DNA of 63,707 bases, the filler included, from Reclinomonas americana ATCC 50394 (taxonomy: Eukaryota): assembly GCA_048213135.1 (NCBI GenBank). It is 7 parts of 6 records of this genome, joined end to end, with 100 filler letters (N's around TTAATTAATTAA, not from the genome) between each part and the next. Parts side by side here need not be neighbours in the genome. Positions count along the whole stretch, not along the records: positions 1 to 30,951 come from PS015648.1; positions 31,052 to 47,524 come from PS015649.1; 5 more parts are not named here. One strand, 5' to 3'. Position numbers and translations under genes: made by a program. Of the stretch, positions 24,707-57,305 are shown piece by piece. Position 1 is the stretch's first letter. Every line of letters begins with the position of its first letter. A model generated the notes under the pieces. It was not told where the DNA came from, did no database searches, and saw only the letters and a program-made list of their open reading frames with translations.

Positions 24707-27700
24707 TTGTTGGAACGCTTCTTTACTGTCACCAACTACAACGCAAAGGCAGTACGCAAGGTGGCCAGTTGCTCGCGGCCAAGGCGGTGTTTTCTCAACT
24801 CAGAAGTGAAGAGAAACGTACGCGTGTGACGTCGTGTTCTTTTTTGTTTGCCGTGTACGTGTTCTTTCCTCGTTTGTTCTCACTCCACCGTCGACTCTTG
24901 TGTTGTCTCCAGCAATCTGGAAGCCTGCCACTGCCGCGGTCGACAATCTTGTTCGTTTGCTGGGCCAGTTGATCAACGACGGAGTCGAGGGCATCGATGA
25001 GCAGGCTGCTCGAGAGCCGCACTGCGCACCACACATCGTTGACGATGCACTGGCTCAGTTTCGCACGGAGTTGGTTAAACTCGGTGAGAGGGAAGAGTCG
25101 ATGGCCGATCTGCTGCAGTAGAATTCTCACTCTCCAGTACGCGCCATTTCGTACGTACAGGTTCTGGCCCACGGGGAGTATTTGGCGTGCTCAGTGGCAA
25201 CCGCGCTGCCTCGTCCTCAGCGATCGCGAGTGACAAAGAGCAGCAGCAAGGTGTGTGGCCATGGGGTTTTCGCAGCGCGCGCGCTGGTTTAAATTTGCCT
25301 TGATCTGATCAATCTGCATGCAGACACACTTCGCCATGCGCAGCGAAACTCGCTGTTCTTGGCCGCTGCTGTCGGGTATACTGGGCCCGCTGGCGCCAGT
25401 GGCGTCGGCGTCGACGACGGCCTGGCTGCTCATGCGACCAGTTTCCTGCGTGGCATACCGGGCCTCGCGGAACACGCAAGATTGCACAAGGCAGGCGCCG
25501 CGTTCACACGTGCTCACGAGTCGTTTCGTCGCCTATTGGACGTGATTTGTGATGCACTGCTGGTGCAGAAGGGTGCGCCTTGTGTGTGCTGTTGATTTTC
25601 TGCTCTTCCTCTGAATTCGAACTCACACGCCCGCACACTGCAGAGTTTGCACGACCTCGCATTCAACACCTCTCCGCCGCCGCCTTCGCCTCCGAGACCA
25701 TTCGCATCCAAACTGCGTTAGTGACCATCACGGGCCACCTTTATCCCGCTCTGGAGCGTGTCAGTGCGTCAGCGTGTCGTTTCTATATATGTCACCCTGA
25801 AGCTTCACTTGCAAGGCCATGGCTCATTTTGCCGCGCGCTCACTCTTGCAGAGAATGAGGATCGCACACTCTCTGGTGCAATGTTCCCAAAGCAGAAGAA
25901 TGAGACGCCTGCAGCTGCCCCTGCGCATGCCCCAAGTGCAACCAAGAACAAGAGCAGGAGCAAGAGCAAGGCACGACCGGTCGCCAGTGGTGCTGCAGCT
26001 GCAGGTTTGTGCTTTTGTGTGCCTTAATTATAAGCTTGTGTGTGTGTGACTGTGAGTACATGTACTGACTCGCGAGGTGACCAGCACCTGCTGCACCGCA
26101 CTGCACAGTGTCCATCTCCGATCCACGCTTGCATGAGTGCAAACAGCAGCTCGGAGAGAGTGTGCACCACTATGCATCGTGCATCGCCAGCGTCGTTGAC
26201 AATCGTCGCGGGTGGCGGCCACTTGCGCGGATTTGCGCGGGAGAGGCCATTGACGCCACACTTCTTGCTGTGCAAGCTCGTCTCGAGACGGCCAGTGCCG
26301 ACTCACTGAGCCTGCGCGATTGCGTCGACGTGGTTTGCGCCGTGTTGAAAGAGGCCAGTGCGGATGTTCGTTGTGCGTGGGAGCGCGCACTTGCGGAAGC
26401 GAAGAGGCGTCGACAGGAGAAGAAAAAGGCTCGGGAGGCGAAGGAGAAGGAGAAGAAGCAAGAGACGGCCGCAGCGGACGGCGACGACGACGACGAGGAG
26501 GAGGAGGAGAAGGAGGATGAAGAAGAAGAGGAGGAGGACGAGGAGGAGGAGGAGAATGATGTGAGCCCAGCACGGAAGCGAGGTGCGAACCCAACACACA
26601 CACACACACGTGCACACACACACAAATGTCTCTCTTCTCACTCGATGGTGTCACTACAGTCGAGAGGATTATCGGCGAATGCGTGCAACTTTGCCTTGGC
26701 ATCAGCCGCACAGCGCGCTCCGCTGTCCTCCACAACATGGCCAGTGGATTTGCTCAGTCCGCTCTGCCGACCTGCGAGACTTTGTTCGAGTCGACACTAT
26801 CAGGCGCATGCGCACCATCTTCGGCACCACAGGACGACGATCGGTTTGTGCATTGTGTGTGTGTGCGATTTCGCACTCGGCCGGCCGGCAGTTGCTGATT
26901 GCAATTGTCCGTCACGTACAGCACACGCACGCTGAAGCTCGCAAACGAGCGCATTCTTCGTGATCTTCTTCGTGGTGGTGCGCACAACTGCGTGTCTGAT
27001 GTGCGCCACTCGGCTGGCGACGATGCAGCGTCGCTCGAGAGCACTCGTATCTTGCTCTCGTCAAGACTGTTCTCGGCTGTCCGCCAGCTGCTCTGCTTGG
27101 TCAAACTGTCATGCGTACGAACACGCAACGGTGTCCCGTCGCGGCGACGTCGCGTGGGCCCAACACACGCGGACGATGTCGAGCTGGTAGAGATTTCCTT
27201 CGCTGCTCGGCCCCCTGCGTCGCTGTTTGCGCGGCAGATGACACACCAGCTCGCGATCGGCCACGACGCGGAAGCTGGCGCCTCTCAATCTGCCGTGCCG
27301 GCAGTCGCTCTGTCACTCGCTGAGAGATATTTCTCCGCGGGCACCGGTTCGTAAGATCTGGCTTGGACGTTGGTGATATCGATTGTCGTTGAGCTCATGC
27401 ATGTATTGCTTGCAATTGCAGGTGTGGTTGTTCTCCCAACTGCTTTTGGTCAACCAACAGTGGAATCACTGCCGACGGTGCAAGCACGGACAGCACTGGA
27501 AATTGTGAGAGTGGCGACGACGCCGCAACTCACTGCAGTGACGGACGCTGTCATGTCGCCTCCACCACCACCTCCTGCAGCAGCAGGTGCCGTCTCCGGC
27601 AGTGAGCACGGTGCGAAGCAGCTGAGTTCGCTGAGCGAGTTGCTTGGCACGCTTTCGGAAGCAGCAGTGCACCGAGGCGGAGTTGTCGCAGCTTCAGCGC

Positions 27701-30700
27701 TGGCTGCCGCCGGTGGACACGGGGAACGACTCCGCACTGCGACAGCCGCGGGCGTCATCGCCTACTGCGAGTCCACTGGGGCACTGGAACAGTGCATCGG
27801 CAGTGCCGCAGAGTTGCGCGTGGCGAAGGCGAGGCTGGAGAGTCTGCTGCAGCTGTCGACGCCCTCGCCAAGTCAGCGACTCGCCGGCTCCACCAGCCAA
27901 TTGCTCGACAAGTACACGTCAACGCTCGTCAACTTCCTCGCTCTGGTGGAGGGGACCGGCGATGCCAGCGCCTCGGCCGGCGCCTCGGCATCGCTCTTGT
28001 CGCAGTCTGGTGTGTACGGACTTGTCGCCTGCATCCGATTGATCGCATTCTCCGTCGCGCACCACATCGGGAACGCCGGCGTCGATGACGCCTCACGCCA
28101 GCTTGTTTCCGTGAGCGACGAGATTGTTCAGAGTGCCATTGCTTCGGTGTCCTTGTTGGTCTCGTCGCTGTTCGACGCGTACGAGGACTCTGTCAACCGC
28201 GGCACTTTGCGCGTCGAGAAACTCGGTACGCACGCATGTGATAATTGCCCTCGCACATGCAGTTTATTTTCTCATTGTTCCATCTTACCAGCGACAACTT
28301 GGAGCAGTCTCAAGACTCTCTGTGCAAAGACCGCGGCCGGCGTTGAGAGCCGTGGCCGGCGCCGCCAGCGCGATCAATTGCAAGCCCTCAAGGCCGCAGC
28401 TGCGTTTGACGACGCAGTCGAGAGTGCTGTCGAGTTCTGGTTCGGCCACCTAGGCAGTGCCTACGAGCGTGCCACTTTACCACGTGCGCGTTCGACCGCT
28501 CGAGCCCACAGTGCACTACCAGGTGCGGCTCTCTCTCTCTCCTCCCCCCCTCCCTCTCTCTCTCACACACACACACACACTCACTCACTCACTCTCATTC
28601 GCTTCACTTTTTCTTACTTGTCTGTCTGTCTGTGTCTCTCTCTCGCACACTCACTCACTCACTCCTTTCCACACTTCTTCCGGCCCTCGTTATTCATCAC
28701 TCTCTCTCACACACCATCTCACTCTCTTTCTCTGTTCCTCTCACTTTCTTTCTTTCTTTCTTGTGTGTCTGTCTGTGTCTTTCACTCACTCTCTTTTTCT
28801 CTCTCATTTTCCTTTCTTTCTCCGTCTGCTGTGTCTGTCTGTGTCTTTCACTCTTACTCACTCATGATCACTCGCTCCTTTTCGCACTTCTTCCGGCCCT
28901 CGTTATTCACTCTCTCTCACACACCATCTCACTCTCTTTCTCTGTTCCTCTCACTTTCTTTCTTTCTTTCTTGTGTGTCTGTGTCTCACTCTTTTTCTCT
29001 CTCATTTTCCTTTCTTTCTCCGTCTGTCTGTGTTTGTCTGTGTCTTTCACTCTCACTCACTCACTCACTCCTTTTCACACTTCTTCCGGCCCTCGTTATT
29101 CATCTCTCTCACACACACTCACTCTCTTTCTCTGTTCCTCTCACTTTCTTTCTATCTTGTGTGTCTGTCTGTGTCTCTCTCTCGCACACTCGTGATCACT
29201 CATTTTCCATCTTTCTTTCTTTCTTTCTCCGTCTGTCTGTGTTTGTCTGTGTCTCTCTCTCGCACACTCACTCACTCTCATTCACTCTCACTCACTCACT
29301 CATTCCACACTTCTTCAGGCCCTCGGTATTCATCACTCTCTCTCACACACTCACTCACTTACTTCTCTCTCTCCCTCTCTCTCTCTTCTCTGTGTGTTTC
29401 TCTCTGTATCTCTCTCACTCACTTTCCCTGTTGCCAGTCAATGGTGCCGCCCTCGCCACTACGACCGACCGCGCCACGGAGACGGTGAACAGTGCGCTGC
29501 GGAGACATCTGGACTACATTAAGCGCCAGCTGGACGTCATGGACGGTCCCTCTGCGCGCGCGCGAACGGCGAATGTCCTCCCGACGTCGTTTCTCACGGC
29601 AGCACTGCACGATCTGCAAGAATTGTGGACGTCGGGCGTCGGTGCAGGAGACGACGACGTGTCGGTGTGCACTCGACTGCTGTCTGTTGAGACTTCCTTG
29701 GGCTGCGTCTCCGATGAATTCCTCTGCGCGACCAAGAGCCATCTGTGCGGCCTGCTCTCCGTTGCCGCTCAGGTGGGTGACGTGCTTCGCAATCACCTGG
29801 AGAATCCCGAGGAGTGTGGCGCCGACCGTGGTGCAGCGACGTCTGCGATTATCGACTCCATTCTGGAAAACAAGTTCGCGACGCGTGTAATTAACGCACT
29901 GCATCGCCGGCCACAGCGCGGTCAACACGGGCGGCGGTCACGCGTTCCATCATCGGTTGCCACGAGTGCCGCCGATGCATTCTTTGCACAACGATCGGCT
30001 GCGTCTGTCCAAGACAGGAACCGCGCACGTTTCAGCCACGAGGCGGTTGAGCTCGTCAAGCTTGCCCTCGCCGCGGTGGCCAGCACAGCGTCGCTCAGCG
30101 ACGTGTGGCGCGTGCTTGGAGGTGCATACTGTCTCTTCTCTTGCTCTCCGTTGTCGCGACCACTCACTCACGTGCTGTCATTGTCAGCTGAGATGAGGAT
30201 CCCTCGGAACCAGTCAATTCTCCTGTGTGGGTGGGCACCCGCAAAGCCGGGACGCCGACCAAACGCTGCCGTCGACTTAGCCACGCAAAAAGCTGGTAAG
30301 TTCTCTCTTGATCAATGACTCTCGCTGTCACTCTCTCACTCTCCCTCCCTCCCTCCTCTCTCTCATCTCTCTCTCTCTCTCTCTCCCTCTCTCTCTCTCT
30401 CCAGATGTCAACACGCTTGGCCGTGACATCCTGCACCTGCGGCAACGCATCCGTGACTCAGTGGTGTCGTACGTCATTGAGGGCCGCAATCACGCACAGT
30501 GGCGAAGGAGACGGGAGGCGAAGCTGGCTATGCTGGCTGAGCTTGCCGTGGAGCGTGCGAGTGATCGTGACGGTACTGGCCCAGAACCGGGCACCGTCGA
30601 GTCGTCGGTGGCGATGCGCTTGGCGCATCACCACGATGGCTATCTGCAGGTGTGTGGTGCACGAAGGCGGGCTGTGGTGCAGGGCGCTGCGATGCTCCCG

Positions 30701-32153
30701 GAGTGTCTGCGTGAAGCGAGGGAGGCATCTATTTGCCTCGACACACACAATGCCAGTGTCAAGGCGGAGGGGAGACAGCGGCGCCTGGTCAAGGATCCTG
30801 GGAACCCGTCGTCTTATGTTCAGCAGAACAGAACAAGTTACAGTACGCTCACCACGCACGCACGCACGCAGTCTGTGATGTAACTTTCCTCACTCTCTCT
30901 CCCTTCCCCTCTTCTCTCTCTCTCTCTTTCTCTCATTCCCTCTCTCTCTCCNNNNNNNNNNNNNNNNNNNNNNNNNNNNNNNNNNNNNNNNNNNNTTAAT
31001 TAATTAANNNNNNNNNNNNNNNNNNNNNNNNNNNNNNNNNNNNNNNNNNNNTGACCCATTTCACATGCATCGTGTTGCCACCATTCTCGGACTCGATGCA
31101 GTCGATGGCGGCTCGTCACACATTGCGAGTGTTCGACGATGGCTCCTGCGAGGAGAGGACTCGCGTTCTCACCTCTGGTACGACCAACTCTTTGCTTCTC
31201 GGCGCGTTTGGTCGATTCGCAAATCGTCTGCGACAAGCGGTACGTTTTGTGCGTGCGTGTGTGTGTGTGTGTGTGTGTGTGAGGAAGAGAGAGAGGGAGA
31301 GAGAGAGAGAGAACTTGTTTGTGTTTGTGTTTGTGATTGTGTTTGTATGATCACTCATTCTCTGCCACACTCTCGCACCTAAGCAGATTGACAAGATCAA
31401 CGCGAAGCGCGCCCTGTTGGGCATCGCCCCCATCGTCATTGTGGAGTGCTCTGAGGCGCACACAACTCGCCTGTGCAGCTGTGGCGAGCCATTTTTCCCG
31501 GCTCCTGGCGGTGCGACCAAGATGACATGCAAGAACAAGGCCTGCCCGCTCGAGGGGGTGGAAGTGGCCCGCGATGACTCCTCCACGAAGAACATCGCTT
31601 GTGTCGCCATTGAGCGTACATCGGAATCATCACCGCCGGCGCCCGCAGCAGCTGGGAGCGCCGCCATGGAGATCGATTCCTCGCCCCCTCTTCGTCCACT
31701 CCCCGTCTCCTTGCCTCTGCCGAGCGACGCCGATCGACCATTCCCCGACTTTGATTTCTTCTCGCCTCTGGCCATGGATCTGGAGCTGTCTCTGCTGGCC
31801 ATGGGCGACGCCGATCGACAACTGTCACCTGGGTGAGTTATTATCTGTCGAGCGATCTTGCGATGCTGAATAATTCGTTGCGTCTCACTCTTCGTGTGCG
31901 CAGTCGGCGGGATGATGCAGCAGCGAATCAGATGCTGGACGGCTCCATGAGTCCTCCCCCTCCACCGCCACCGGTAGCACCAGCTGCAGCATCGGCACGT
32001 GCTCCGCCCCGAAATCGTCGCCAGGGTGGAACTATAGCTAGCGCCGCAGCGTTGGCACGTGCTAGCACTCCGCCCCGACAGGGTGGAAAGCACCCCCGAT
32101 CTGCTCCGGTCGAAGGAGCACCGCCGCAAAAGCGGCCGCGGAAGAACAAGTGA
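24707..32153 (+). CDS. Giant intron-rich Fanzor/TnpB-like RuvC nuclease with a long N-terminal extension (5' end uncertain; interrupted by the assembly spacer at 30952-31051)
   Basis: Fourteen exons from 24707 to about 30842 splice in frame and end in LVKDPGNP (D at 30794). After the spacer: THFTCIVLPPFSDSM..RVLTSGTTNSLLLGAFGRFANRLRQA|IDKINAKRALLGIAPIVIVECSEAHTTRLCSCGE..TCKNKAC..VARDDSSTKNI. C-terminus PPQKRPRKNK*. Confidence 0.75.
28523..29437. repeat. CT-rich intron containing about four tandem units of roughly 200-230 bp
   Basis: cacttcttc(c/a)ggccctcg(t/g)tattca recurs at about 28672, 28885, 29078 and 29308 within (CT)n/(CTCA)n sequence. Confidence 0.85.
30952..31051. other. Artificial 100-nt contig-joining spacer (N44-TTAATTAATTAA-N44); also at 47525, 49817, 50979, 56367 and 62038
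   Basis: Identical all-frame stop linker flanked by Ns, seen six times. Confidence 0.95.
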
Positions 32154-32529: not shown

Positions 32530-33191
32530 ATGGCGACGCGCGACGACTGTGTGCTGAGGTGCGTGCGTGTGTGAGAAAGAGGGAGAGAGGGAGAGGGAAA
32601 GAGAGCTCNNNNNNNNNNNNNNNNNNNNNNNNNNNNNNNNNNNNNNNNNNNNNNNNNNNNNNNNNNNNNNNNNNNNNNNNNNNNNNNNCTATCGGTGGTG
32701 GAAGATGTGCTCACGTGCGCCGTGCTACAGTCGGCAGCCGTGTCGGTCGCCTCGTCAAGTGGAGGGTCGGCCGCTGGTCGGCCCTCGCAGCCATCGCAGT
32801 TGGACGCCATGCAGCGGGAGTTGGCACACGTACAACCAGGTGAGCGATGCGATTTTTTCCTCTTTTTGACGCTCTTTCTTGTCGGCTGACAATCGATGGC
32901 ACAGGACCGGAGCGGTGGAACATGTTGAGAGCCAAGTGGACAGGTGCAGGGTCTGTGGTCGCCGGTGAGTCGGGCGCCAGTGGCAGTGCCGGTGGCGAGT
33001 CGTCTTCTGCAGCAACGCCGGCTGCGACACGGGAGGCGCGGAAGCGGCAAGGGCGGTCACCGCCCTCGATTGACTCGATCTCCGAGTGCCTGGTGAACCC
33101 GGGAAGATCACGACTCGACGAACCAGTACCATTGCCGTACATGGTGGCTGTACTCACCGCCATGTGGGAGGAAGAGGGATTGCATGAATGA
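32530..33191 (+). CDS. Gag1-like clamp (DUF4050) domain protein
   Basis: G|PERWNMLRAKW ... RLDEPVPLPYMVAVLTAMWEEEG matches the W..R..W and P.PL..MV..L...W..EG pattern. An N gap lies in the first intron. Confidence 0.7.
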
Positions 33192-33652: not shown

Positions 33653-36600
33653 ATGCGCATTGTTGTGGTGGTGCAGGCGAGCATGCTCGTGGCGATGACG
33701 GTGATGCTGGTGGTGACGGTGAGCAGCGTGGAGGGCGGGCTGCTGGCCTCGTCACAGGTCAGCAAGTGCGTGCGTGATGGGAGTGGGCGCGACACGGCCA
33801 GTGGCATCTCGTGCACGGAGAAGTTTGTGTTGACCATGTCGGTCGACATTGGGCAGGTGGGGTTGGCGCCGGAAGCTTCACTCGTGCTGTGCTTATCGTG
33901 ACGTGCACGTGTGCAGAACAACACCGAGGCACTGCTGGCCACGGTCGATCGTGTGGCGGATGAGACCGGCAAGACGCGCGTCTTGCAGAAACCGTGGGAG
34001 ATCTCGGTGAAGAAGACCAACGCGTACGTGCGTTATCCGGTCACGTATCGACAGGTTTGTACGTTGTTGTCTCTACGCGTAGGGGAGTTGTGGAAGTGGT
34101 GGTCGCTGAATGACGCTGTTGGGGCGTACAGACCTTCAACACCAAGCCCAAGGAGCGCATCGTGTTGCAGTCGCTGCTGCTGAGCCAGTGTGTGGCCGGC
34201 GACCACGACGACAATCCGTCGTGTGGCTGGTACACCGACGCCAACAACAACCGCGTGCAGTACTCGCAAGGCTTTTGCTGCTCGTGTTCCATTGGCGACG
34301 TGCTCGGCGGACTGGTGGGCTCTGGCAGTGGTCCAGCGCGTGGCAGTCTGAACTGCGGCCTCTTCTCCGACTCGGGTCAGAGTGCACACTGCATGCGCTT
34401 TCGCGATCTGTGGTACAATGGCTACGAGATCGGCGAGTGGGAGGTGTTCTTCATCATCACGGTGAGCATTGTGCGATACACCTCCGACAACGAGACCAGC
34501 ACGGAGCTGTTGCGAGTCAGTCCCACGCAGTTGGGATCGCTGTCGTCGGATGGAGCGTGAGTCGATCACACGCATACACATGGCACAGACTGGCCCTCCG
34601 CACGTGCTGATTGTGTGCATCGCAGTGTGCAAGTGCGACTGGTGGGCGACTTCTCACCATACACCTCGCCGCCGATACTCGCCAACAAGATCATGATGGT
34701 GCCTTGGATCCCGGTCGACGATCCCGTTGTGAAGCTGGTTTGCCTGGAGTGTTGCCGATCTGCAATCCAGTGTTTCACTCTTCCATGCATAAATCGCTGC
34801 GCACTAGGGACCTGCCGCGTGGATGCTGGTCGACCGTGAACTGATCACATTCGACGGTCGCGAGTGCGACAAGATCGGTGTCGGTTTTTACGTTGTGTTA
34901 GCTCGCTGTTTTATGCCAGCAATGGTGGTTCGCTCGTGATGCTCACCGCCATGCTCTCGCAGGCATTCAAGTACGATGCAAATGCGTGCGATAAACCAGC
35001 CGGCTCCTGCCTCAACAATCAGCTGCAGGACTTGTACCAGGTGCTGCTCCAAGTGTTGCTGGTGTTGCATGTCCACTATCTCAAGGAAATAACGAATGCG
35101 CGCAGTCAGATCTGCAGCGCGTCAGTCAGGGCCTAACGCCACGCTACCTGCTGGACGGCTTCGGCAACTTTGTGAGCCTACGCGAGAGCGGTCGCAACGA
35201 CACGTACCTGGCGTACCAGATTCGGAGCTTGCAGGCCAGTGTGATTACAATCACACTGAAGGCCGACAATGTGCAATATGTGGTGAACAGGTGCGGTCTC
35301 CACTATGGCGCACACGGGGCCGATGATGTCTGCGTTTACTGACGAGTGTGAGGTGCAGGAGTGGCGGTGTCATCAGAAGTGCCATGGTCGGCACGTTCGA
35401 GGGCAACTCCAACAACGGCAAGATGAAGGTCCTGGTGGCCAGCATCGGCAACGTGACTGCCGACTTTTACGTCACTGTGGCACAGTGTTCGAGTGATATC
35501 AAGGAGGTGCAGGCGCAGACGGCGTCGATCGCACCGGGTGATACGCACCTGTTTGTGTTTGACATTTTCGCCGAGACATCAGTGCAGGCGGATCACATTT
35601 GCTCAGGTGCCGTTGATGTGCTCAGCAATGGCTTCCATCTGTTGCTCATTACGTGGCGCACGTGCAGTGCTGCTGTACGACAGCGGGCAGTCACTCATCG
35701 ACACTGTGGTGGTCAGCTTCAACACCACCGCCATGATGATCAACCAGGGTATGCAGGGTGGGTCGGCACCCAGTGACTCGGGGACGCCTGCCATTCTCGG
35801 GTCCGGTGGTTCTGACAGCTGTTCATGTGGATTGTTGCGTGCGATTCGTTCTGCTGACCATCCACGTGTGCGGGTGTGCCTCACCCGAGTGTTGCGACTC
35901 CCGCAGCTTCAACATTACGTGCTCGTTGTTTAGCGGCTGCTGGGGCAAGTTGGCGGCCTCACTGGCCTTCTACCTGGGATTGCTCGCCCTTCTGTATCTT
36001 GGCTTGTTGCGTGCCCACATCAGTTGCATGTTGGTCTGCTGTGGAGTGCTGACACGCTGTATAGCAAGTTTGGCATCTTTCGGAAGCTGTTTTCCATGTG
36101 TTGCTGTCGCAAGAAGTCCACCAGCACCGACGGCGACGACGATGACGATAGCAGCAGCAGCAGTAGTGACAGCGACAAGAAGGATGACAAGCGTCGGAAT
36201 CGGGAGTCCAAGGCGGCAGCTGCGACGAGGTTTGTCGTCCACATGAACTGGGATCAGCCTCCCACAAGCCTCATTCCCTTTATTGCGTTTGCGGCAGTCG
36301 CGAGAAGAAGGCCGCGAAAGAGAAGCGTCAGCGAGAGCTGTTGCGCAAGCAGCGTCGGAAGCTGGTCGAGATTCGTCGCAAGGAGTTGGAAGAAGAGCGC
36401 CGGCGACAACGCGACCAGCAGGAGGCCACGGCGAACAGCGACGATGATGCGTCGAGCACCGACAGTGTCTTGGACGCGGACGCAGAGTACTTGCGCGATG
36501 TGGGCGACGTGCAGCTTGTCATCAACGACGACGAGGAGGTGGTGGCTTCGACGCATCACCGCCGTCGCCGTCCGCCTCCACAAGAAATGCACGTGCGCGT

Positions 36601-37181: not shown

Positions 37182-39246
37182 TCACTTCCCGTTACGAGTG
37201 AAAAACGTCGACAATGTTTTCTGCGACGCGCCACTCTTCTTGCTGCTGCTGCTGCTGTTGTTGGTGGTGACGGCGACCGCACTGGCTTTTCTGGCTCGTT
37301 TTCGGGGTGGTGGTCGCACCTCCTCTGGAGTGATCTCCACCACCTCATCGTCGTCGTCGTCGGCATCAACGTCATCACCGCCTGTTCCCTTCTCCTCCTC
37401 CATCTTCACATCCTCGCCGTCGTCGTCATCGTCATCCTCCTCCTCCTCCTTGGCTTCTTTCTTCGGTTTTCGCGGCCGCTTCGTCACCGAAAACGTGGAC
37501 AGCACCGATTTGTTGAGGGCGGCCGAGTGCAGCACCTTGCGCATGCCACTCGACAAGGCCACCTCCGCCATCTCCGCGGCCGGCACCCAGCGCCACGGTT
37601 GAGGCTGCACGACACCACGACCGGCAGCACTGCGCACCGAAGCCGACCAGTCGTGTGCGCCGAGAAGCTGACCGGTGGCGACGTCGGCACACGACGGGTG
37701 CACGCGCAACACGTGCACGTGCATGTGTTGCCGCAGATGCGAGAATGTGTGTGTCACCACAGCACACACTACATGCTCAGTCACCTGCACCGCCGGCAGA
37801 CCGACGACCTCGCGCGCGAATTCCACCAGCGCTTGTCGTTGCTCATCTGCGTCGGCCGACTTGTCCACGGCCACACTATGGCGCAGAGGAGGAGGAGAAG
37901 GATGAGGAGGAGAGCAACAACGGGGAAAAAAGGGTGTAGTTGACAAGAAGACGAACCACGGAAACTCCCACAACGATGCCAGCAGGCCCTCGGCCGGCCG
38001 CTGCACGAGCAAATACGACGGAGGTGCCTGATCGGTACTCACTACGGCCACAGCAGTGGAGATTTCTGGCACGGCGGCCTTTTTCGACTTGACCGGATAC
38101 AGGGTGACCTGCGCCACGAGTGTGTGAGAACGAGAGTACAGTGACAGGAAGGCACGTTGATTGTCGTCGCACCGCATACTCGTCGCCCTTTTCCACTTGC
38201 TGCGCGTACGCACGGCAGTGCTCCTTGATCGGACATGTGGCGCACGATGGCGACTTGGGCGTGCACACCACGGCGCCGAGTTCCATGAGGGCTTGGTTGA
38301 AGTCACCGGGCCGACCGGGATCCACCAACTCGCGAGCCAGCGACCTTGCGATCGTGAGAGGCGCCAGTGAGACGACGGTGGAAACGACACAAGCTGCACG
38401 GATGTGAGGTCGCTCACCAAAACGTCCTGGTCACAGCCGGCTTCTTGATGTCGTCGTCGATGCAACAGAGCCGCGACAGCACGCGCATGACATTGCCGTC
38501 CACCAGTGCCTCCACACGACCAAACGCAATCGACGACACGGCTCCGGCCGTGTAGTCACCAATGCCAGGGATCTGCTTGAGATCGCCCACCGTCGCCGGG
38601 ACCAGGCCACGCATCGTGCTGCAGCCGACGACCTTTTGTGCGCCGTCATGCAGCATTTTCGCTCGCCGATAATACCCCAGGCCAGCCCACGTCTCATTCA
38701 CTTCCTGCACAGGTGTGAGTGCCAATACGCTCACGATATAGCATCATCGGGCAGCGAGCACCTCGAGTGATGCACTGGCGAGGACCGACACCTGCATGCA
38801 TGCATTGCCACTGAGCGAATGCACAGCTGCAGGCTCAATCACACAAGCGCAACTGTCGGGAAGCGACGCATCCATCGCTCAAAGTACTCAATCACCGTCT
38901 GCACTCGCGTCTGCTGCAGCATAATCTCCGACACCCACACGCGATACGCATGCTGCTGGCGCTCCTCGGAGACATCGTCGTCTACGCACACAGATGGTCA
39001 CAACGCGACGCAGGAGAGCAATCACTGTGCGCAGTAGTACCTGCACAGGCAGAAGCGTACACAGGAGGTGGCTTGCGCCAGGGCAGCTGCCGACAGTGTG
39101 CATCGTACCACATCAACAGCGCCGATCGGATGCCAACTGCATTCAACGATAATGACGACGATGACGATGACGAAGCCGCTGCATCGCACACTGCTAAGAG
39201 AGAAGGAGACACGGGAGAAGAAGGCGAGACGGGTTTGCTCACCCAT
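37182..39246 (-). CDS. MUTYH: A/G-specific adenine DNA glycosylase MutY homolog
   Basis: [35 protein letters not shown]; Hh[23 protein letters not shown]; Fe-S motif [33 protein letters not shown]-terminal PIP-box-like QKTLSTFF. Confidence 0.95.
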
Positions 39247-39313: not shown

Positions 39314-42300
39314 ATGCCGCCGAAGAAGGCTGAGAGTGCGTCCTTCCCTCCTTGCTCGCACACGCACACGCACACTGCTCACTGCTTCACTCTCTCTCCC
39401 CCTTTCCATCGCCCACAGAGCCGGTCAAGGTCGAAGAGCCACCGCCATCGCCGCCTCCAGTCACCGCAGCCGCTGATGGTGGTGGTGGTCCTTCGGGCAG
39501 CAGCGAGCATGCAACCGCAGATAGCATGTCGCCACCACGCACACCCAGTCCCCCATCAACACCACCGCCACCACCGCCTCCTGAACTGTCGTGCCAGGAG
39601 CGACTGCTGACGGTGCTGCGCGAGGTGTTCACCTCGTACTACCCGCCGCCTCGACCGCCAACCCCACCGCCACCACCACCGCCTCCCCCACCCGTTGCGT
39701 CTCTTGCATGAACGCACGCTCTCTCACACAGTGGGGTGGCCGCGATTTGCTGATGGTGGGTTGGGCGCGCGCAGGAACCGGAACCAGAGCCAGAGAAGCC
39801 GGTCAAGGGCGGCAAGAAGGGTCCACCACCAAAGCCCTCCAAGGCGCCTCCACCTCGTTGCGCTGCTTTTGTCATCTCGTCTTGTTGATGTGCCATGCTG
39901 ATTGGTGTCTGCGTGTGTGTCGCGTTGCAGCACCGCCAGAACCGGAGCCAGAGCCTGTGCCGGTGGCGCCTCCAGAGCGTTTCGTCCACGTCGTTGTCGT
40001 CTGTGGATGAAAAGGCACACTACTCACTGTTACTGGCAGCTCCACACCCGTCCAAGGGCTTGGGAGTCGACGAGCCGGACGACAATGAGCCGCAGGATGA
40101 GTACGGCTCCACGATTCGACTGGTGAAGGGTCGGGCGCGCGACTCGGTGGAGGAATGCATGCGACTTACCGATCACTTGGTGGAGGCCAGTCGGCATCGC
40201 ATGCGACGTCTGCGCGCCGAGGTCGCCAAGAGTGTGAAGCTGGACGACGAGCCGGCTGTTGTCGCTGCCTCGTCGGCGCCGACAACGACGGCAGCTGCGG
40301 AGGGCAGCGGTGCGCCGCGATCGGTGCACGCCTCCTCGCAGTTCCCCTCGGATCCGGGTGATGGAGCCGGGCCATCTGCAGTGCGTCTTTGTGCTTGAGC
40401 AACATGTCAGTGAGTGCGTGACCTGCATCTCACGTCTCATCGCCCGCCGTGCAGATCGACCATGAACACGCGGATCAACCTGGTTCGCCCCTCCATTTCC
40501 TTTTGCACGCGAGGGATTGATGAACGAATGGCTCACCAGCGTGATCGCACGTGCAGATGAGAGCTTGGTGAATCAGTTCCTGCAAGAGGACGAGGCGCTG
40601 CTGGCGCGCTACCATCTGGTGGACGCGGTGGCGCTCATGACCAGCAAGGACAGCAGCGTGTTCAGGACGTTCCAGCCGCTGCCGCTGGCCTCCAAGCGCG
40701 AGTCCATGCCTCGTTTTGCTTCTGTCACCCTTTCGCGTGGCAGTCAAGTCAACCTCGGTGCGTATGCACTGGTTAGCGGAGAGAGTGAGCATTCAGCTGA
40801 ATTCATACGTGTGCACAGACCGATCACCACCGCCCACGCGCCCACCTGTTGTCACTGGCGGTGGGCAGTCGCGTGCCGGCTCTGTGGTGCGCTTTGTGGA
40901 CGAGGCTGAGGTGCAGCAGAGGGAGTTTGAGAGCCACAAGGAGCGTCTGACGGAGATGGTGGTTCCGCTCAAACTCGGTGGTGACGGTCAGGTCGTTGGT
41001 GCCTCCACACCGACAAAGCGACAGCGATTGCGCACAGCGGTGGCCCAGCAGCATCCGGCTGACGCGCAGCTTGAGGCTCACATGACTAGCAAGTTGAACT
41101 TCCGTGTGAATCCCCGATTCCGCGACTTGCCGAGCAAGGACGAACGACCGCGACTGAGTGGTACACGGCGAGACCAAGCGTTTGCGCTTTCCACCAACAC
41201 CGTGACCTTCTCGGCGTACAGGGTCAGTGGTGGCCATGTACAGTGAGGGTGGGGGCACGGAGCATTCTGACTGATTACGGCGTCGTATGTTTTGTGTTCG
41301 ATGCGCAGGTGGGTGAGCAACTTGAGCAGTCGTTCACGGTGATGAATGTGTCGAGCACGTCAAGGCGGTTGCGCGTGCTGCCACCGACCACTTCTCGCTT
41401 TTCCGTGCACTTGGCCAAGCTGCCGAACAACAATGCACTGGTCGCACCGGGTATGAGCATCACTGTGGTGGTGTTGTTCAAGCCGGACAGTGTGGCCGAT
41501 GTCGACGACGCCGCCGTGGTGGTCACTGACTTTTCCGAGTTGGAAGGTTGGTGGTTTATTGAGCAGGAGAGATGCAGATGTGTTTGTCATCTCACTTCGC
41601 CTCTTCGTATCATAGTGACTCTTCTCGGCCGTAACCACCCACCGCGACTGACGCTGCCGAATCGGCTCACCTGCAAGTTCCGTCGTCGTCGTCATTGTGG
41701 GGTGGAGTTGATGACTGGGGTGCTCATTGTTCTTGTCTGTCTTTTGCAGGCCTGCGTTGATCGGATTCGAGTCCGACAATGTGTTCCGCTGCAAGAACAT
41801 CGGTGGCAACGGCAACTTTTGGCTGCTCTCCGAAGACGGTTTGTGTGCCTCGCGATAGAATGCGTGGCGACGTCCCTTCTCATCGTCACCGATTGTGTTG
41901 GCAGAATTCCTGCAATACGAAACTGAGGGCGTTGGTTACCTGTTGAGCTCGGCTCTGGCGGAGCGCACACGTGTGCAGTGTGGTGTCAACTTTGAGGTGT
42001 ACCCGACCGACTTTATGCTCGTGCCATCGTCTGGTGAGAGGAGCATCAGCGAGTGGTGATTCTGCGAGTCGGCGGAAGCTAATGCTTTCCTCCATTTCTT
42101 TGGTCGCAGAGGTGGATGTGCAAGTGTTGTTTGCGCCACTGTCGACCGACATGGCTGAGCAGAATCTGTATATTGTGTGCGACAACATGACGGTGTTCCG
42201 GTACACGCTGAACGGTATGCTTGCGTCGACGCGCTGCGTGTGGTCGCCTTCACGCGCCACCGTTGCTCATTTGTGGATGCTGCAGGTACTGGCACGCTGC

Positions 42301-45300
42301 CGAATGTGTTTGTGAGCAAGGTCAACGGCGAGCCCTTTGATCCCAGAATTCACTCATCGACGCTGGCGTTTAATGAGACCACGCTGACGTCGAAGGAAGT
42401 TCGCGCGGGTGAGTTTTGCACATGGTATCGTGAGTTGTTGTCACCAACTTGTTCACCGTTGTTTGTTTTGTGCGTGCGCAGTCGAAGTGACAAACTCGAG
42501 CCTTGTACCCCTGACTGTGACGTGGAAATTACTGGTATGTGTGTGCCTCTGTGCGAATGTATGTCGGCGCTCTTGTCTCACTCAACACTGCCTACTCACC
42601 AGAACCAGCAAGGGAAATCGTCGTCAGTGTTCCTGGTGGAGCCTCCATCACGGCAGGTGGCCGCGCAAGACACGGCGGTCTTCCACTTTGCCTTTGCGCC
42701 TCCAGGCGACGTTCACCCTGGCACTCACACTGCGGTGGCTCGTCTGTGGGTGGAGGGGCTGCCTGGTGGATCGCTCACCAAAGAGCTCTCGGAGCGCACA
42801 CAGAACGGTTGGTTGTTCGCCTTGTTGTTTGTCGTCTTGCTGTGTATCGATTCTCACGCGGTGGCGTAGACGAGGCCGAGTTGGATGCGTCGCTGGTCGG
42901 TGCCACTCTGGATCCGAATCACTTCTTCGCCACAGATGCACTGCGGCGTTTGCTGGTGGACAGTGATCGGGAGCGCGGCTGCTATGACATGTCCGTGCAG
43001 CGCTTCGACATGTTTGGCGATGCGTGCCAGGTCAGCGTCGAACTGGTGCCTCCCATCATTGCCTTCCAAGGCAAGATGCTGCTGGGTGAGCGCTACGACC
43101 GGTACATTACGCTGCACAACCGTGGCGATGTTGCCGTGTCGTTCAAGTGGGAGCTGCCGGAGGGTGTGCACAATGGGATTCGCAACAATCGCGAGTACAA
43201 CTACGCCGAAGAGGAACGCAAGAGAACACGATCACTGGAGGGCGACTCACACGGTGACTACGAGGGCATCACCACCGACGACTCGGATTTCGGGCCGTAC
43301 GCCATCCAGTTGCAGCCTTTCAACGGCAAGATTGCAGCCGGCCAGGCCATGCAGGTCCGTTCCTTTTCATGCTTCCAATTCATCTTCATTTCTTCCTTGG
43401 CTCAAACGCCTGCCACCATCCTGCAGGTCAAGGTCAGCTTGCTGATCAACTCTCCCCAAACGCTGGCTCTCGTCCTCCCATGCAAGTTCGACGCGGCGCG
43501 ACCAGTGAAGCTGTACATCTCGGGCCAGGTGGCCGGTCCGCAGGTCTTCCTCGAGGAGGCCGCCATCGACTTTGGTGTGGTCGAGGTCGGCACCGAAGTT
43601 GCCGCCACACTCACCGTGGTCAACGACTCGCCGACGCCGGTGCACTGGATGCTGGCCGAGCGTGTCACGGCAAGCCGGTTGCGAGATAGGTGCGGCGCTG
43701 TTTCGTCTCTCATGCAGTGTGCTGTGTGAGATGCTTACTCCTTCCAATCCTCGGTACTGTGGTGCAGTGACGACTTGACGCACGAAATGTCGGAGCAACC
43801 CAAGTTCCTCTTCCTGCCTCCCGAGGGTGTGCTGGCCAAGAAGTCCAAGGAGGTGTGCATGCCGACATGTTGCTGTGCGCTTAATTTTGCAAAGGCAGCT
43901 GACGCCTCGTGTCACGCAGATTGTGTCGGTCGTGTTCAATCCCGAGTATCCGTTCCGTCTGGAGGGTCTGGTGGAATGCGCTGTCGAAGACGGCGAGAGT
44001 TGCTTCATTAGTGTTCGAGCGGTGGTGGACGCCCCAAAGGTGCTCCTCCATGACTCTCTCTCTCTTTCTGTATCAGTGGCCATCGGTATTTACTGTGGTG
44101 CGCTCAGGTCGTCATGAGACCACCGGTGATCGAGCTGCCGCCGTGTACCATCAACGTCCCGCAACTGTTTGAGATCACACTGCAGAATTTGAGTCTTGTG
44201 CCCGCCGATTTCGAGTGGATCAGTGTGCAAGCTGACGGTTTGTGTGTGTGTGCATGCGCGAGCTTGCACAGTACACTGTGATCTCACGTGGTCGTCCTCG
44301 TGTGTGCACAGCCTGCATGGTGGGCATTTCGGCGGCAACTGGGCGCATTGCGCCGTGCTCCGATGCCCTGCTGACGATGCAAGTGACGCCGACCGTTGTG
44401 GGTCCGTTCCGCATCCTGCTGCCGTGCTGGGTGCAGGGTATGGAGACGCCGATTGCACTGGCGGTGTCTGGTCGCACCGAGGGCATGGTGCTGTCGCTGG
44501 ATGTGGCCAACGAGGAGGCGAGTCGCACAGCTCGCCTTGCCGAAATCCTATCATCACGAGCTCACTGTGCATACATAGGAGGTCACCACGCAAATCGCTG
44601 CCGAAGTCGGCGCACTTGCCAGTGGGTTTGTCGAAGGCACCAGCGAGGCCACGGCGGGAACTGCCACTGCCGACTCGGCCGACGCGTTCGACGGCGATGT
44701 TCATCGAGTCAACAAGCCCATTCAGCCGTGCGTATCCCCCACGCGCCATCGTCATTCTTGGTTGCAATCTGTAGTTATTTATTCACGCTATCTCATTCTC
44801 TGCGCAGTTTTGCCTCTTGGCTGGTGGATCAGTGCTTTGAGCGAGCCACGACGACGGCACCGCCGACTGAGCGGCCGCCGACGGCGCCAGTACCGTGTCT
44901 CGATTTCGGCATGGTGGGCCTGTTTGAGCGCAAGACGCTGACACTGACAGTACGAAACCACTCGTCGGCCAGTGCAGCGTTCTCTGCCTATGTTGATCGC
45001 CTGTCGTTCCCAGCGGTGCGTGGACATGCATGCATGTGACTTGGTTACTCTTATTGTCTTGACTCAACTCGTCATCACTCTCGCAGGCCGACGCTGTCTC
45101 CGCAACAGGNNNNNNNNNNNNNNNNNNNNNNNNNNNNNNNNNNNNNNNNNNNNNNNNNNNNNNNNNNNNNNNNNNNNNNNNNNNNNNNNNNNNNNNNNNN
45201 NNNNNNNNNNNNNNNNNNNNNNNNNNNNNNNNNNNNNNNNNNNNNNNNNNNNNNNNNNNNNNNNNNNNNNNNNNNNNNNNNNNNNNNNNNNNNNNNNNNN

Positions 45301-51249: not shown

Positions 51250-54200
51250 ATGTACGACGACGACGGCGACGACGACTACGCCACTGTTGCGTCTCTCTTT
51301 CTCTCTATCCTTCCTCTGTGTGTGAGAGAGTGACTGAGTGACTCTTTGTCGCAGGCTGGTCGCTCGCGCAGTGCTCACGATGACGACTCATCGGCATCCT
51401 CGCCGCATGTGCGTGTCTATGCGAGGATACGCCCGTTCTTGCTAGCTGAGGTGCGTCTCACTGTGTGTGAAAGAGAGAGAAGATGACTGTGATTACGATG
51501 ATGATAGTGATGATGAGGTTGAGCGGTTTGGTTGATCTGTATGTGCTCTTCCCATCCGCAGCTGGAGCGCGGTGACAGCGACTATGCGTGGTCATCGTCG
51601 GAGGAATGCACGCATGTGTTGCCGAACTTGGATTACGTGCGCGCTCCGTCGTACCCGTTTGGTGAGACATATCGATGCTCGTGTTCTCTGTCGCTCTCTC
51701 TCTCTCTGTCGCTCTCACACGCATGCGCACGTCGTTCTCAGACTGCGTGTATGGCGACGAGGACACGAGTGAGGATATGTATGGGCCGACGGTGGAGCCA
51801 CTGGTGGATGCGGTGCTCGATGGCATCAATGGTTGGCGCATCGGTGTGTGTGTGTGTGTGTGTACCGTGGTCATGACTGACACCAACGCACAGGAACGGT
51901 GATGAGCTATGGAGTGACGACGTCGGGGAAGACGCACACGCTGCTTGGCGATGAGCACGATGAGGGCCTGATCGGCTGCCTCGTTCGTGACCTGTTTTAT
52001 AAGATCGACAGGGTGTGTGTTGTGATGCTCGTCACTGTTGTTATCGTCGCTTATATGTCTGTGACAGCTGCCGGGTCGTGAATTCCTCGTGCGCTGCTCG
52101 ATGGTGGATCTGGAGAATGAGAAGACACGCGATTTGTTGGGATCGTCGCCCGAGGTGCGTTTTGCGTGGCACACCGGGTGGATCGTGAGAAAGAGAGACA
52201 GCTCACTCACGACGATGCCAGGTCCCCGTTGCCGATTCGATGGAGATTATTCTGCAATCGGGTTCACACGCACTAGCTGTAATTCGGCGTGCACTGTGTT
52301 GCGTAGTGACACGAAGCGATGCTTTTGGGCGGTTCGTTTACTGATTTCCTCTCGTCTGTGCAGTGCACCGCAGCGTGCTGGACGCGTCGCGCAGTCCTCT
52401 CAGCAACCGCGCCGTGTGTCTGTGCCGCATTGTTGCGTTTCACGCGCTGTGCATCGCTTCACATGCGACTAGTATGTCTCACACGCTCGCTCGCAGACGG
52501 TGGAGAGCAGGGTGCGCGAGTTCGAGTCCGAGTGGTGCGTCGACGCGCTTGCTTGCATACATGGTGGGGAGATTTCTTCAGTTGATCGTGTCATTTTTGT
52601 CCGTTTATCGCAGGCCACAAGAGCCGCATCCAGCGTTTGCGGCATCGCTGGTGAGCCAATGACGGCAGTCAGCATGCTTTCCAAGATTTTCGTGCTGACG
52701 GGTGTGCCTCCGTGTTCGCAGCTGCTGGTCGACATGGCTGGCTCGGAGCGCATTGGAGCATTTGATGCGCGAGAACACGAAGTGGTTCGCTCTGGCACTT
52801 TCGTCAACAAGAGCATGCTGACGCTTCACCGCTGCGTCACTGTTCTCGCCGAAACTCGCAAGTGCGTGAGCAGCGCTGATCCTCTGCTCGAAATGCGTGC
52901 ACACTGATCGCTCCCCGCCTCTGCGCACAGATCGGGAGCACCTGTGCCCTACCGGGAGAGCCGTCTCACTCGCTTCCTGCAGCAATCACTCGGTGGCAAC
53001 TCGAAATTGGTGATCATTTGCTGCGTGACTCCGTGCATCGAACACGCCGAGGAGAGCCAGAGGTGTGCCTTGATCTCTCGCCTGTGAGAATAATCAGTGA
53101 GTTGAGTTGAAATCTCTCATACCTCTTGCCCAGCACCCTTCGCTTCTGCCAGAACATGCGCAAGATTGTGAACTCACCGACGCGCAATGAGGTAAGTCTG
53201 GGCGATGATGAGAGGAGGAAGTACAGGCAGACTCACATCTCCACATTTTTCGCGCAAGCAGACCAACGACGATAGCCAGGCGTTGATCCTGCGTTACAAG
53301 GCAGAGATCCGTCGCCTGCACAACATGCTTGCCCAGCGCGAGCCCACCGAGGTAAGAGGCGTTGCTTTCAGTGACCGTCGTCGTGATTGTGCTCACTCTG
53401 TGCGTGCAGGCTCAGGCTGCACTCATGGCCAGTGAGGTGGACGGATCCCCGAACCGCAAGCTGAGTCTGGCGGAGCTTCGGACGGGCATTGAGAGCAAGC
53501 TGTCACTCCTGCAAACCTCCATCATCTCTGCACAACACAAGAACAGCGCTTCCTTCCGTTGCGTACGCTGTCGAAGGTGATCTTCTACATCCACATGTTT
53601 GTGTCTTCTGACAGTCGTTGCTGTGGCAGGCTCCGGAGCAGGGCTCGGTTTCATGGGCGACGAAGTTCCCTCCATTCAAGTCGCTGTCCAGCACAGCGGT
53701 TTGGTGCGTCCTTGCTGCTGCTGCGGTCCCTCCCACGCGTTCTTGTGTCATGACTGACTTGCACCCGCAGCCGAAGCGATATCCATTCCTGGGAGTGAGT
53801 GCACTGCAGTGCTGCGGCATGATGGAGTCTGTTGCACTTCGTGACTTATCGCCCTCCGTTCTGTGCAGACTGAAAGACACCACACCGCTGCACTCGATGC
53901 GCTGCCGCAGTCGCCGCCCTCCGCCCTCATGCGCCTGGTATGTGGCGGGGAGGAACAGGAAAATGTGTCCGAGTGTGGGGCATTGGTGTGTTCATTTCGC
54001 GTGCGTGGAAACTGCAGGCCACAGAGGTCAATGGCCACGACGGTGAAGACGATGATCATCACCAAGCGTACGGCGAACCGCCTGTACACCGCTCGGCCGT
54101 TGATGTGCCACTGGTCGACATTGCGCAGGCCGGCTTTGATGGTGAACACAAGATGGGGCGCGTGAAGAGCGCTTCGTCCCCTCGACAGGCTGCAATGTCG

Positions 54201-56253: not shown

Positions 56254-56466
56254 GGACCGTGAGAGAGTGACAATGCACTGTGCAGAGCCCGCTCGATACA
56301 GCGTCCTCCTGGGCAAATCAAGTCGCCCACATCGATTCCAGTTGTGTGTGTTTGTGGATTGTTTGCNNNNNNNNNNNNNNNNNNNNNNNNNNNNNNNNNN
56401 NNNNNNNNNNTTAATTAATTAANNNNNNNNNNNNNNNNNNNNNNNNNNNNNNNNNNNNNNNNNNNN

Positions 56467-57103
56467 GCCAGCCGCCCGACAAATGCTCACCAACTCGCGC
56501 TGCTCCTCATGCGACATGACATACCCGGTCGGGTTATGCGGGCAATTGACGACCACCAGTCGCGGAGGAGGATCACTGGCCGCCACCACCTCGCGCAACT
56601 GCTGCAAGTCCAATCGCCATTCAGGCGCGCGCGTCTCCCACCGCGTGACTTGCGCCCCACACGCCTCCGCCACCGCAGTCAGCGACTGGTAGCACGGCCA
56701 GTGCACCACCACGCGATCGCCCGGCACAATGCACGCTCGCACAAAGGCATAGATGGCCTCCTGCGCGCCCACGTGCACCAGCAGGTGCTGCTCGGGGTCG
56801 ATGGTGGTGTAGAGTGTGCGGGCAATGGTCTCGCGGAGGTGGAGATCGCCGGTGGATTCGGCGTAGCCGAGGCGGAGGTCGAGGAAGCGGTCGAGGGTGG
56901 AGGTGGAGGAGGTGGGAGAAGAGGTGGGGGTGAGGGAGAGGAGGTCGCGGATGGAGGTGCTTTCGGCGTCGGAGCAGCAGAGGAGGAGCGGGGTGGTGAA
57001 TTCGTAGCGGGCGAAGAAGCTGGGTGGGTGGTGAGTAAGGGAGGGGAGGGAGGGAGGGAGGGAGGGATGAGGAGGCGAACCGTTCGAGTTTGAAGGGCTC
57101 CAT
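56467..57103 (-). CDS. Class I/II PLP aminotransferase (bacterial-type subfamily), 3'-truncated by a spacer
   Basis: MEPFKLER|FFARYEF..LCCSDAE..LGYAESTGDLHLRETIA..GAQEAIY..PGDRVVVHWPCYQSL..VNCPHNPTG. One GT-AG intron. Confidence 0.85.
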
Positions 57104-57305
57104 GATCGACGACTGATTGGTGTGCAATCAGGGCGGGCGGACATCGAAGCAACAGTGATCCCCAGCAAGCCTCGTGTGGTTTTCTTCTCGACTGGGTCGT
57201 CGATGTTGGGAAAATAAAGACCCCTTTCCAAGTCACATAAACTCTGCCGGCGACGTCGACTTTACAGGCTCAGCATCGTGGTGTCGATGAGTGGCCAGAG
57301 GTCAA

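Follow-up and report, generated by a model that had tools for sequence, protein, structure and literature searches.

A divergent Fanzor2-like nuclease gene, cut by an assembly join, in the nuclear genome of Reclinomonas americana

Nucleases of the TnpB/Fanzor family are guided by an RNA derived from the 3' end of their own gene and cut matching DNA with a RuvC site, and to our knowledge Fanzors are the only RNA-guided DNA nucleases of eukaryotes. The Fanzor-type RuvC site consists of an Asp (RuvC-I), a relocated Glu just before a zinc finger, and an Asp in RuvC-III. Here, we examine a 63,707-nt stretch of joined sequence from Reclinomonas americana ATCC 50394 (assembly GCA_048213135.1; hereafter the window), in which an original prediction had placed a giant Fanzor-like gene at 24707-32153. 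We find that exons 31054-31239 and 31387-31832 on the plus strand, possibly together with 31904-32153, are likely the C-terminal half of a very divergent gene of the Fanzor2 or alternative-Glu TnpB type that has acquired host-type introns. Sequence comparison supports reading the encoded peptide as a rearranged (alternative-Glu) RuvC-II/TNB/RuvC-III module, closest to Fanzor2/IS607-like proteins. The front half of the gene (WED, REC, RuvC-I) would lie beyond or inside an assembly join at 30952-31051, referred to below as the gap.

The first exon after the gap (31054-31239) is open to the first bases of its contig (31052) and carries the RuvC-II strand, in which Pro 31078 occupies the canonical Glu site, as well as the start of the next helix (FGRFANRL). 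It is followed by a 147-nt intron (31240-31386, GTACGT...CAG) filled with (GT)n and (GA)n microsatellite and placed by homology at the junction, and then by exon 31387-31832, which contains the alternative Glu at 31453, a four-Cys TNB finger (Cys at 31474, 31480, 31528 and 31543), the RuvC-III Arg-Asp (31570-31575, with the Asp at 31573) followed by ...KNI, and a low-complexity tail. The alternative Glu lies six residues ahead of the first finger Cys. The positions originally given for the DPG motif before the gap (30794), the Pro of CIVLPPF, the Glu and the Asp are all correct. The count of three exons after the gap also stands, but CIVLPPF and FGRFANRL share exon 31054-31239, so that the third exon is 31904-32153; likewise, the finger does have the C-x4-C knuckle described, whereas its first knuckle is C-x-C, not C-x-x-C.

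Beyond the tail, splice sites and frame suggest a putative 71-nt intron (31833-31903, +, GTGAGT...CAG), which if retained would end the protein at TGA 31834-31836. The putative last exon (31904-32153, +), read by translation, is Pro/Ala-rich and reaches a stop after a basic KRPRKNK, which may be a nuclear localisation signal. This exon is doubtful as coding sequence, and because its codon-usage score is negative, KRPRKNK may be untranslated. The open frame at 31351-31836 spans 161 codons, a length that we estimate, by our own reckoning and not by a tool calculation, to be unlikely in neutral sequence of the same base composition. Taken together, the long open frames and the precise intron are more suggestive of a coding gene still being maintained than of an old wreck.

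Several profile resources point to the same family. Exon 31387-31832 matched Pfam PF07282 (Cas12f1-like TNB; E = 0.063, profile positions 17-60 of 60) and NCBIfam NF040570 (guided_TnpB; E = 0.0088, positions 336-387 of 389), and in ESM Atlas 25 of its 30 feature matches fell in the PF07282 set (highest score 0.94). For a closer comparison, viral contigs were scanned for a short Fanzor-type motif, giving 122 loci and 82 open reading frames (ORFs) with the motif. The 38 of these 82 that keep DPG, alternative Glu, finger and Asp in order were used to build a local hidden Markov model (HMM), and 33 of them an hhalign profile. This set is considered Fanzor2-like because the 33-protein profile found its best match in the mimivirus TnpB-like protein L79, of solved structure 9b0l (E = 2.4 × 10−93), and because PF07282 is present in 33 of 33 proteins (OrfB_IS605 in 28, HTH_OrfB_IS605 in 25). 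Likeness to Fanzors was scored against this giant-virus set, and Fanzor1 was compared by description.

Against the local HMM, the spliced post-gap protein ranked first of 1255 sequences (11.4 bits, E = 0.0077), the ranking comprising all six-frame ORFs of at least 30 residues plus two gene models. The unspliced ORFs of the two post-gap exons ranked second and fourth, the one with 31054-31239 being first among raw ORFs, and splicing both exons together raised the scores from 6.3 and 3.7 bits to 11.4 bits. The first 150 residues of the protein scored 14.2 bits, whereas the best among 2000 shuffles, 1204 of them yielding any score, reached 2.1. With hhalign, exon 31387-31650 matched profile columns 496-549 (P = 0.0012) and exon 31054-31239 matched columns 446-461 (P = 0.0087), collinear with the former, while three control exons before the gap gave P = 0.54, 0.57 and 0.83. 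The HMMER alignment set IVLPPF on the consensus IllPkf, placing the Pro at the canonical RuvC-II Glu position, Glu 31453 on the alternative Glu of the family, and Arg-Asp 31570-31575 on the RuvC-III DRD. Since this alignment crosses 31239/31387 without insertion or deletion, intron 31240-31386 is confirmed by homology. The Fanzor2/IS607-like assignment that had been proposed is supported, weakly but consistently, for the peptide after the gap by PF07282, NF040570, ESM Atlas, the local HMM and hhalign; in profile searches the post-gap exons matched TnpB/Fanzor and the exon that carries DPG did not.

A number of observations weigh against assigning these exons to the family. The library scores are all under the curated cut-offs (13.9 vs 26.3 bits; 15.3 vs 100), and the hhalign probabilities of the two post-gap exons are low (19% and 5%). 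The comparison set was itself selected by a Fanzor-type motif, which makes the match in the finger region partly circular and leaves that of the RuvC-II strand independent. A strict published regular expression for Fanzors (taken from PMC10711439) has no match in the window and fails at the C-x-C, the C-x4-C and the nine residues to the Asp; moreover, Pro and alternative Glu are ~76 residues apart, vs ~45-50 in the family. A phmmer search with the 88-residue core against 1.84 billion representatives returned two repetitive proteins (4-6 matched stretches each), which we rejected as spurious, and PDB sequences searched with the core gave only sodium-channel and thrombomodulin noise. Single-sequence AlphaFold2 modelled the core exon with low confidence (predicted local distance difference test, pLDDT, of 46). 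Finally, there is no second copy within the window, no Rfam match at E <= 1 and no guide RNA seen across 20-36 kb, and no terminal repeats at the locus besides microsatellite-driven ones.

Other searches were also empty: no related loci were retrieved from viral contigs (one query) or metagenome contigs (two queries), and word-index homologue searches at longer lengths only, with exons 31387-31833, 27424-28225 and 30407-30841, gave no match. Translating 31054-31650 straight through the intron, the in-frame stop being written as X, brought no gain in NCBIfam or Pfam score. A bacterial TnpB alignment considered as input for structure prediction was dropped as circular. A motif relaxed to E-x6-C-x1-2-C-x12-18-C-x2-4-C-x4-9-D occurs once in the window (start 31453, final D 31573) and in none of 300 block-shuffled windows, a count that is partly circular because the motif was relaxed only after the sequence had been inspected.

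It is conceivable that a Cys-rich peptide unrelated to TnpB mimics the motif by chance, and the sub-threshold scores, the absence of a significant match among 1.84 billion representatives and the fact that the region was originally picked for its motif would all be in line with this. We consider it very improbable, given that 0 of 2000 shuffles attained the real score and the relaxed motif was never recovered from the shuffled windows, that two separate exons align in collinear order with the profile, one match covering a strand that played no part in selecting the set, and that three independent libraries agree on the family.

Published accounts allow the locus to be set beside known systems. 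In Fanzors a Pro or Gly replaces the RuvC-II Glu and an alternative Glu follows later, and the genes of the family have gained introns as well as nuclear localisation signals (PMC10530073); DPG is typical, the Glu stands six residues before the finger and 120-160 residues from DPG, and the finger follows a C-x2-C ... C-x2-C geometry with 4-8 residues to the RuvC-III Asp (PMC10711439). With Fanzor2 (mimivirus L79, 9b0l, and its giant-virus relatives) the locus shares, in collinear order, the RuvC-II Pro, the alternative Glu six residues before a Cys, the four-Cys finger and Arg-Asp...Asn-Ile, and the C-x4-C second knuckle recurs in 6 of the 38 giant-virus relatives. It differs from Fanzor2 by an insertion of ~23 residues after the RuvC-II strand and ahead of the alternative Glu, by a C-x-C first knuckle (a form that selection of the comparison set precluded), by nine residues from the last Cys to the Asp where the family has 4-8, and by SSTKNI in place of the consensus NGARNI. 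In addition, the locus bears introns, its front half is unrecognisable, and it scores ~11-14 bits, compared with 72 bits for a viral member on PF07282 alone.

The alternative-Glu TnpBs (the IS607-associated 'pro-Fanzors', or TnpB2) share the rearranged RuvC logic (PMC10530073, PMC10711439), and the last 52 profile positions of NCBIfam guided_TnpB match the locus. Unlike them, the locus is eukaryotic with spliceosomal introns, and neither a serine recombinase or TnpA among the ORFs scanned nor an omega-RNA family was found. Fanzor1 proteins, of up to ~800 residues, resemble the locus in their eukaryotic host, their introns and their insertions in RuvC and the finger (PMC10711439, PMC10530073). 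Where Fanzor1 has a TDG motif in its WED domain, none was spotted by eye in the exons before the gap, and neither a eukaryotic transposase associated with the locus nor terminal inverted repeats turned up.

Positions 30952-31051 consist of N44-TTAATTAATTAA-N44, a 100-bp scaffold linker marking an assembly join that fixes neither gap size nor adjacency. It is one of six identical 100-bp linkers in the window (starting at 30952, 47525, 49817, 50979, 56367 and 62038), and the 'spacer' of the original prediction is not biological. Since the linker separates them, the DPG (30794) is on another contig than the Pro, Glu and Asp (31078, 31453, 31573), and the join cuts the nuclease gene within its RuvC domain. 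Plain N gaps of 20, 80, 488 and 566 bases also occur in the window, which right of 31 kb is a chain of short pieces of 1-16 kb each.

We used the linker at 56367-56466 as a control. A class I/II aminotransferase ORF abutting it (56467-57261, −; Pfam E = 1.9 × 10−22) breaks off at profile position 177 of 361. Across the linker, the adjoining 2.8 kb holds 28 minus-strand ORFs of at least 35 residues, and none continued the aminotransferase at E <= 1, although the same kind of scan easily picked up kinesin exons of 40-60 residues. Therefore, such linkers can conceal at least ~185 codons or connect pieces that are not neighbours. The kinesin gene itself sits within one scaffold and so carries no information on continuity across linkers; apart from the aminotransferase, ORF-based continuity at the remaining linkers gave nothing informative, and microsatellite strand bias, tried for contig orientation, was mixed. 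The locus thus exemplifies how scaffold linkers may pass for biological spacers.

The last exon before the gap (30405-30842, +), with a GTACGC donor at 30843, holds DPG at 30794-30802 and is the candidate RuvC-I. If it is not spliced at 30843, its frame meets a TAA at 30881-30883. Translated in six frames, the window contains seven DPG, only one of them between 23 and 33 kb; this one is in the best-scoring frame, 16 codons ahead of the donor, and on the strand of the post-gap exons. At the frequency seen in the window, a DPG would fall by chance among the final ~76 codons before the join with a probability of ~0.4% (one frame) or ~1.3% (three frames). There are 97 residues visible between DPG and the alternative Glu, and the published spacing of 120-160 would need 23-63 more in the join; if DPG is RuvC-I, an estimated ~55-75 residues would be missing there. 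Single-sequence AlphaFold2 gave this exon a low mean pLDDT of 59, with a strand-turn-strand around DPG at a local confidence of ~75, the best of the model.

On the other hand, the exon has no match in Pfam, NCBIfam or hhalign, no usable match in ESM Atlas, and ranks 405th with the local HMM (−3.9 bits). A Lys precedes the DPG Asp, vs Leu, Ile or Val in 38 of 38 relatives, and the Arg-Thr-Phe that usually follows DPG-x is absent, so that the flanks are unlike those of all 38. Judged on the sequence, whether this DPG is RuvC-I is close to an even call, with the balance slightly against it. The triad that had been described as apparently intact rests on a DPG beyond the assembly linker, in an exon devoid of profile signal and with deviant flanks, and the description is not sustained.

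If DPG is RuvC-I, then the two exons that can be joined to it in frame by their splice sites (~29438-30121 and 30188-30295, +) must supply the WED/REC part. These exons gave P = 0.57 against the Fanzor2-like profile in hhalign and no meaningful Pfam or NCBIfam family, and Pfam, NCBIfam, the local HMM and hhalign likewise gave no match to WED/REC (HTH_OrfB_IS605 or OrfB_IS605) for exons 29440-30121 and 30405-30842, though these domains may be masked by divergence or by the gap. The N-terminal Fanzor motif P...Q...R..YN, present in 20 of the 38 relatives, is absent from the window. Further upstream is a CT/CA-rich stretch of 915 nt (28523-29437, +; donor GTGCGG, acceptor ...TGCCAG, length a multiple of 3), which is either a very long in-frame intron, by far the longest here, or an intergenic spacer. 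Within its CT/CA microsatellite lies a minisatellite (28619-29320) of 4-5 copies, 60-90% identical, with a period of ~190-210 nt.

Ahead of this stretch, codon scores and dynamic-programming exon chaining gave ab initio exons (24707-28522, +) of a putative protein, in which the codon-score profile shows clear coding signal only from ~27.4 kb. No homologue was found for the upstream exons, and their Pfam matches are low-complexity ones only, on an acidic run near 26.4-26.6 kb; a weak TTI1_C/CDC45/BUD22 match on 26081-26932 was likewise rejected as an effect of acidic low complexity. The original prediction described a chain of 14 exons joined in frame. A GT-AG chain to 30842 can indeed be built, with 12 exons from 24812 and extendable to 22.5 kb (17 exons, 1560 residues), but it is not unique: two alternative in-frame chains fit 28.3-30.4 kb, the exon chainer connects anything open, and the scarcity of stop codons in CT-rich repeats is enough to keep frames open. 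As several chains are possible, in-frame joining is weak evidence.

The proposed fusion of ~1,700 residues with a huge helical N-terminus is an ab initio chain, no upstream exon resembles TnpB/Fanzor or any other protein, and we do not uphold it. Such a giant gene, of ~1,700 or more residues, would begin with a helical protein (24.7-30.8 kb), cross the DPG exon and the gap, and finish with the Fanzor C-terminal half, its product being a domesticated RNA-guided effector with new accessory domains. In its favour, the in-frame chain reaches 30842 and the 915-nt stretch can be removed in frame; DPG is rare, on the right strand, close ahead of a donor and at a spacing compatible with the published range if ~25-65 residues are hidden in the join; and the scanned ORFs hold no transposase domain, with ordinary host genes flanking (HAP2, 34.1-35.9 kb). 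Yet the join is a scaffold linker, and at another such linker a gene fails to resume; the pre-gap exons lack both resemblance to TnpB/Fanzor and the P...Q...R..YN motif, and their DPG differs in its flanks from every relative; alternative chains and the in-frame stop at 30881 are at hand. Fanzors, moreover, are reported to reach ~800 residues at most (PMC10711439). The first in-frame Met near 29.54 kb already leaves ~360 residues before DPG, and a start there would yield a Fanzor of ordinary size, its Asp at a position close to that of Asp 324 in the mimivirus enzyme (PMC10530073). The helical N-terminus of ~1,400 residues is probably a separate or unverified gene, and we hold the giant gene to be improbable. 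More improbable still is its fullest form, a single-copy, transposase-free and intron-rich fusion of a lineage-specific helical protein with a catalytic Fanzor2-like RuvC; if true, it would be a domesticated eukaryotic RNA-guided nuclease about double the size of any described Fanzor.

A likelier alternative, which we place somewhat below even, is that only the C-terminal half is Fanzor-derived, that the gene before the gap belongs to the host, is unrelated and stops at TAA 30881-30883 with a coincidental DPG, and that the front half is unassembled, elsewhere or lost, leaving a relic or an exapted module. This would account for the lack of profile signal before the gap and for the Lys at a position that is Leu, Ile or Val in all 38 relatives; by the linker control, joins of this kind can conceal at least ~185 codons or connect non-neighbours, and the one-residue deletion in the finger together with SSTKNI for NGARNI hints at relaxed constraint. 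What speaks against it is the small chance of a DPG so near the join on the shared strand, the frame open to the first base of the post-gap contig, by which the exon extends into the join, and the length of the post-gap open frames, which is at odds with an old pseudogene. For the C-terminal half of a divergent Fanzor2-like gene, the reading that we prefer, retention of nuclease activity is possible but, as far as sequence can tell, rather unlikely.

The genomic setting is that of a eukaryotic nuclear genome, with a GC content of ~57%, short GT-AG introns full of CA/CT/GA microsatellites and ordinary nuclear neighbours. Among them are a WD40 protein (1775-2635); a HAP2/GCS1 gamete fusion gene (34114-35930, +; best Pfam E = 3.2 × 10−25) of at least four exons, which follows directly on the Fanzor-like gene; a MutY-like glycosylase (37185-38555, −; NUDIX_4 E = 7.9 × 10−14, endonuclease III iron-sulfur loop E = 1.4 × 10−4); a ciliary Ig/ASH-domain gene of DLEC1/CFAP65 type (41090-45036, +); and a kinesin motor in short exons (51666-53084, +). 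The kinesin and the ciliary gene indicate a flagellated organism. Between the Fanzor-like gene and HAP2, ORF 32844-33188 (+) shows a weak match to a Gag1-like clamp (PF13259, E = 7 × 10−4), under the cut-off. In the homology-anchored HAP2 and kinesin introns (35291-35351, 52860-52930 and 51835-51893), CTGAC or CTGAT occurs shortly before the acceptor and is possibly a conserved branch site, and the donors of these three introns are degenerate (GTGCGG, GTGCGT and GTTGGC).

In line with the original prediction of no transposase or resolvase nearby, a transposase domain was absent from all ORFs scanned, namely those of at least 90 residues in 17.8-41.3 kb, those of at least 110 residues beyond 44 kb, and a selection of long ORFs elsewhere. 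RNA folding downstream of the gene gave a lowest z-score of −2.1, with no strongly structured RNA. Divergence is strong enough for phmmer, searching 1.84 billion proteins with the conserved core, to miss the gene's own family. In a limited search of the literature, we found no description of a host-retained (domesticated) Fanzor. As the data stand, the locus is an incompletely assembled, highly divergent Fanzor2-like gene of a family already known; should it prove complete and expressed, it could be put forward as a candidate host-retained Fanzor.

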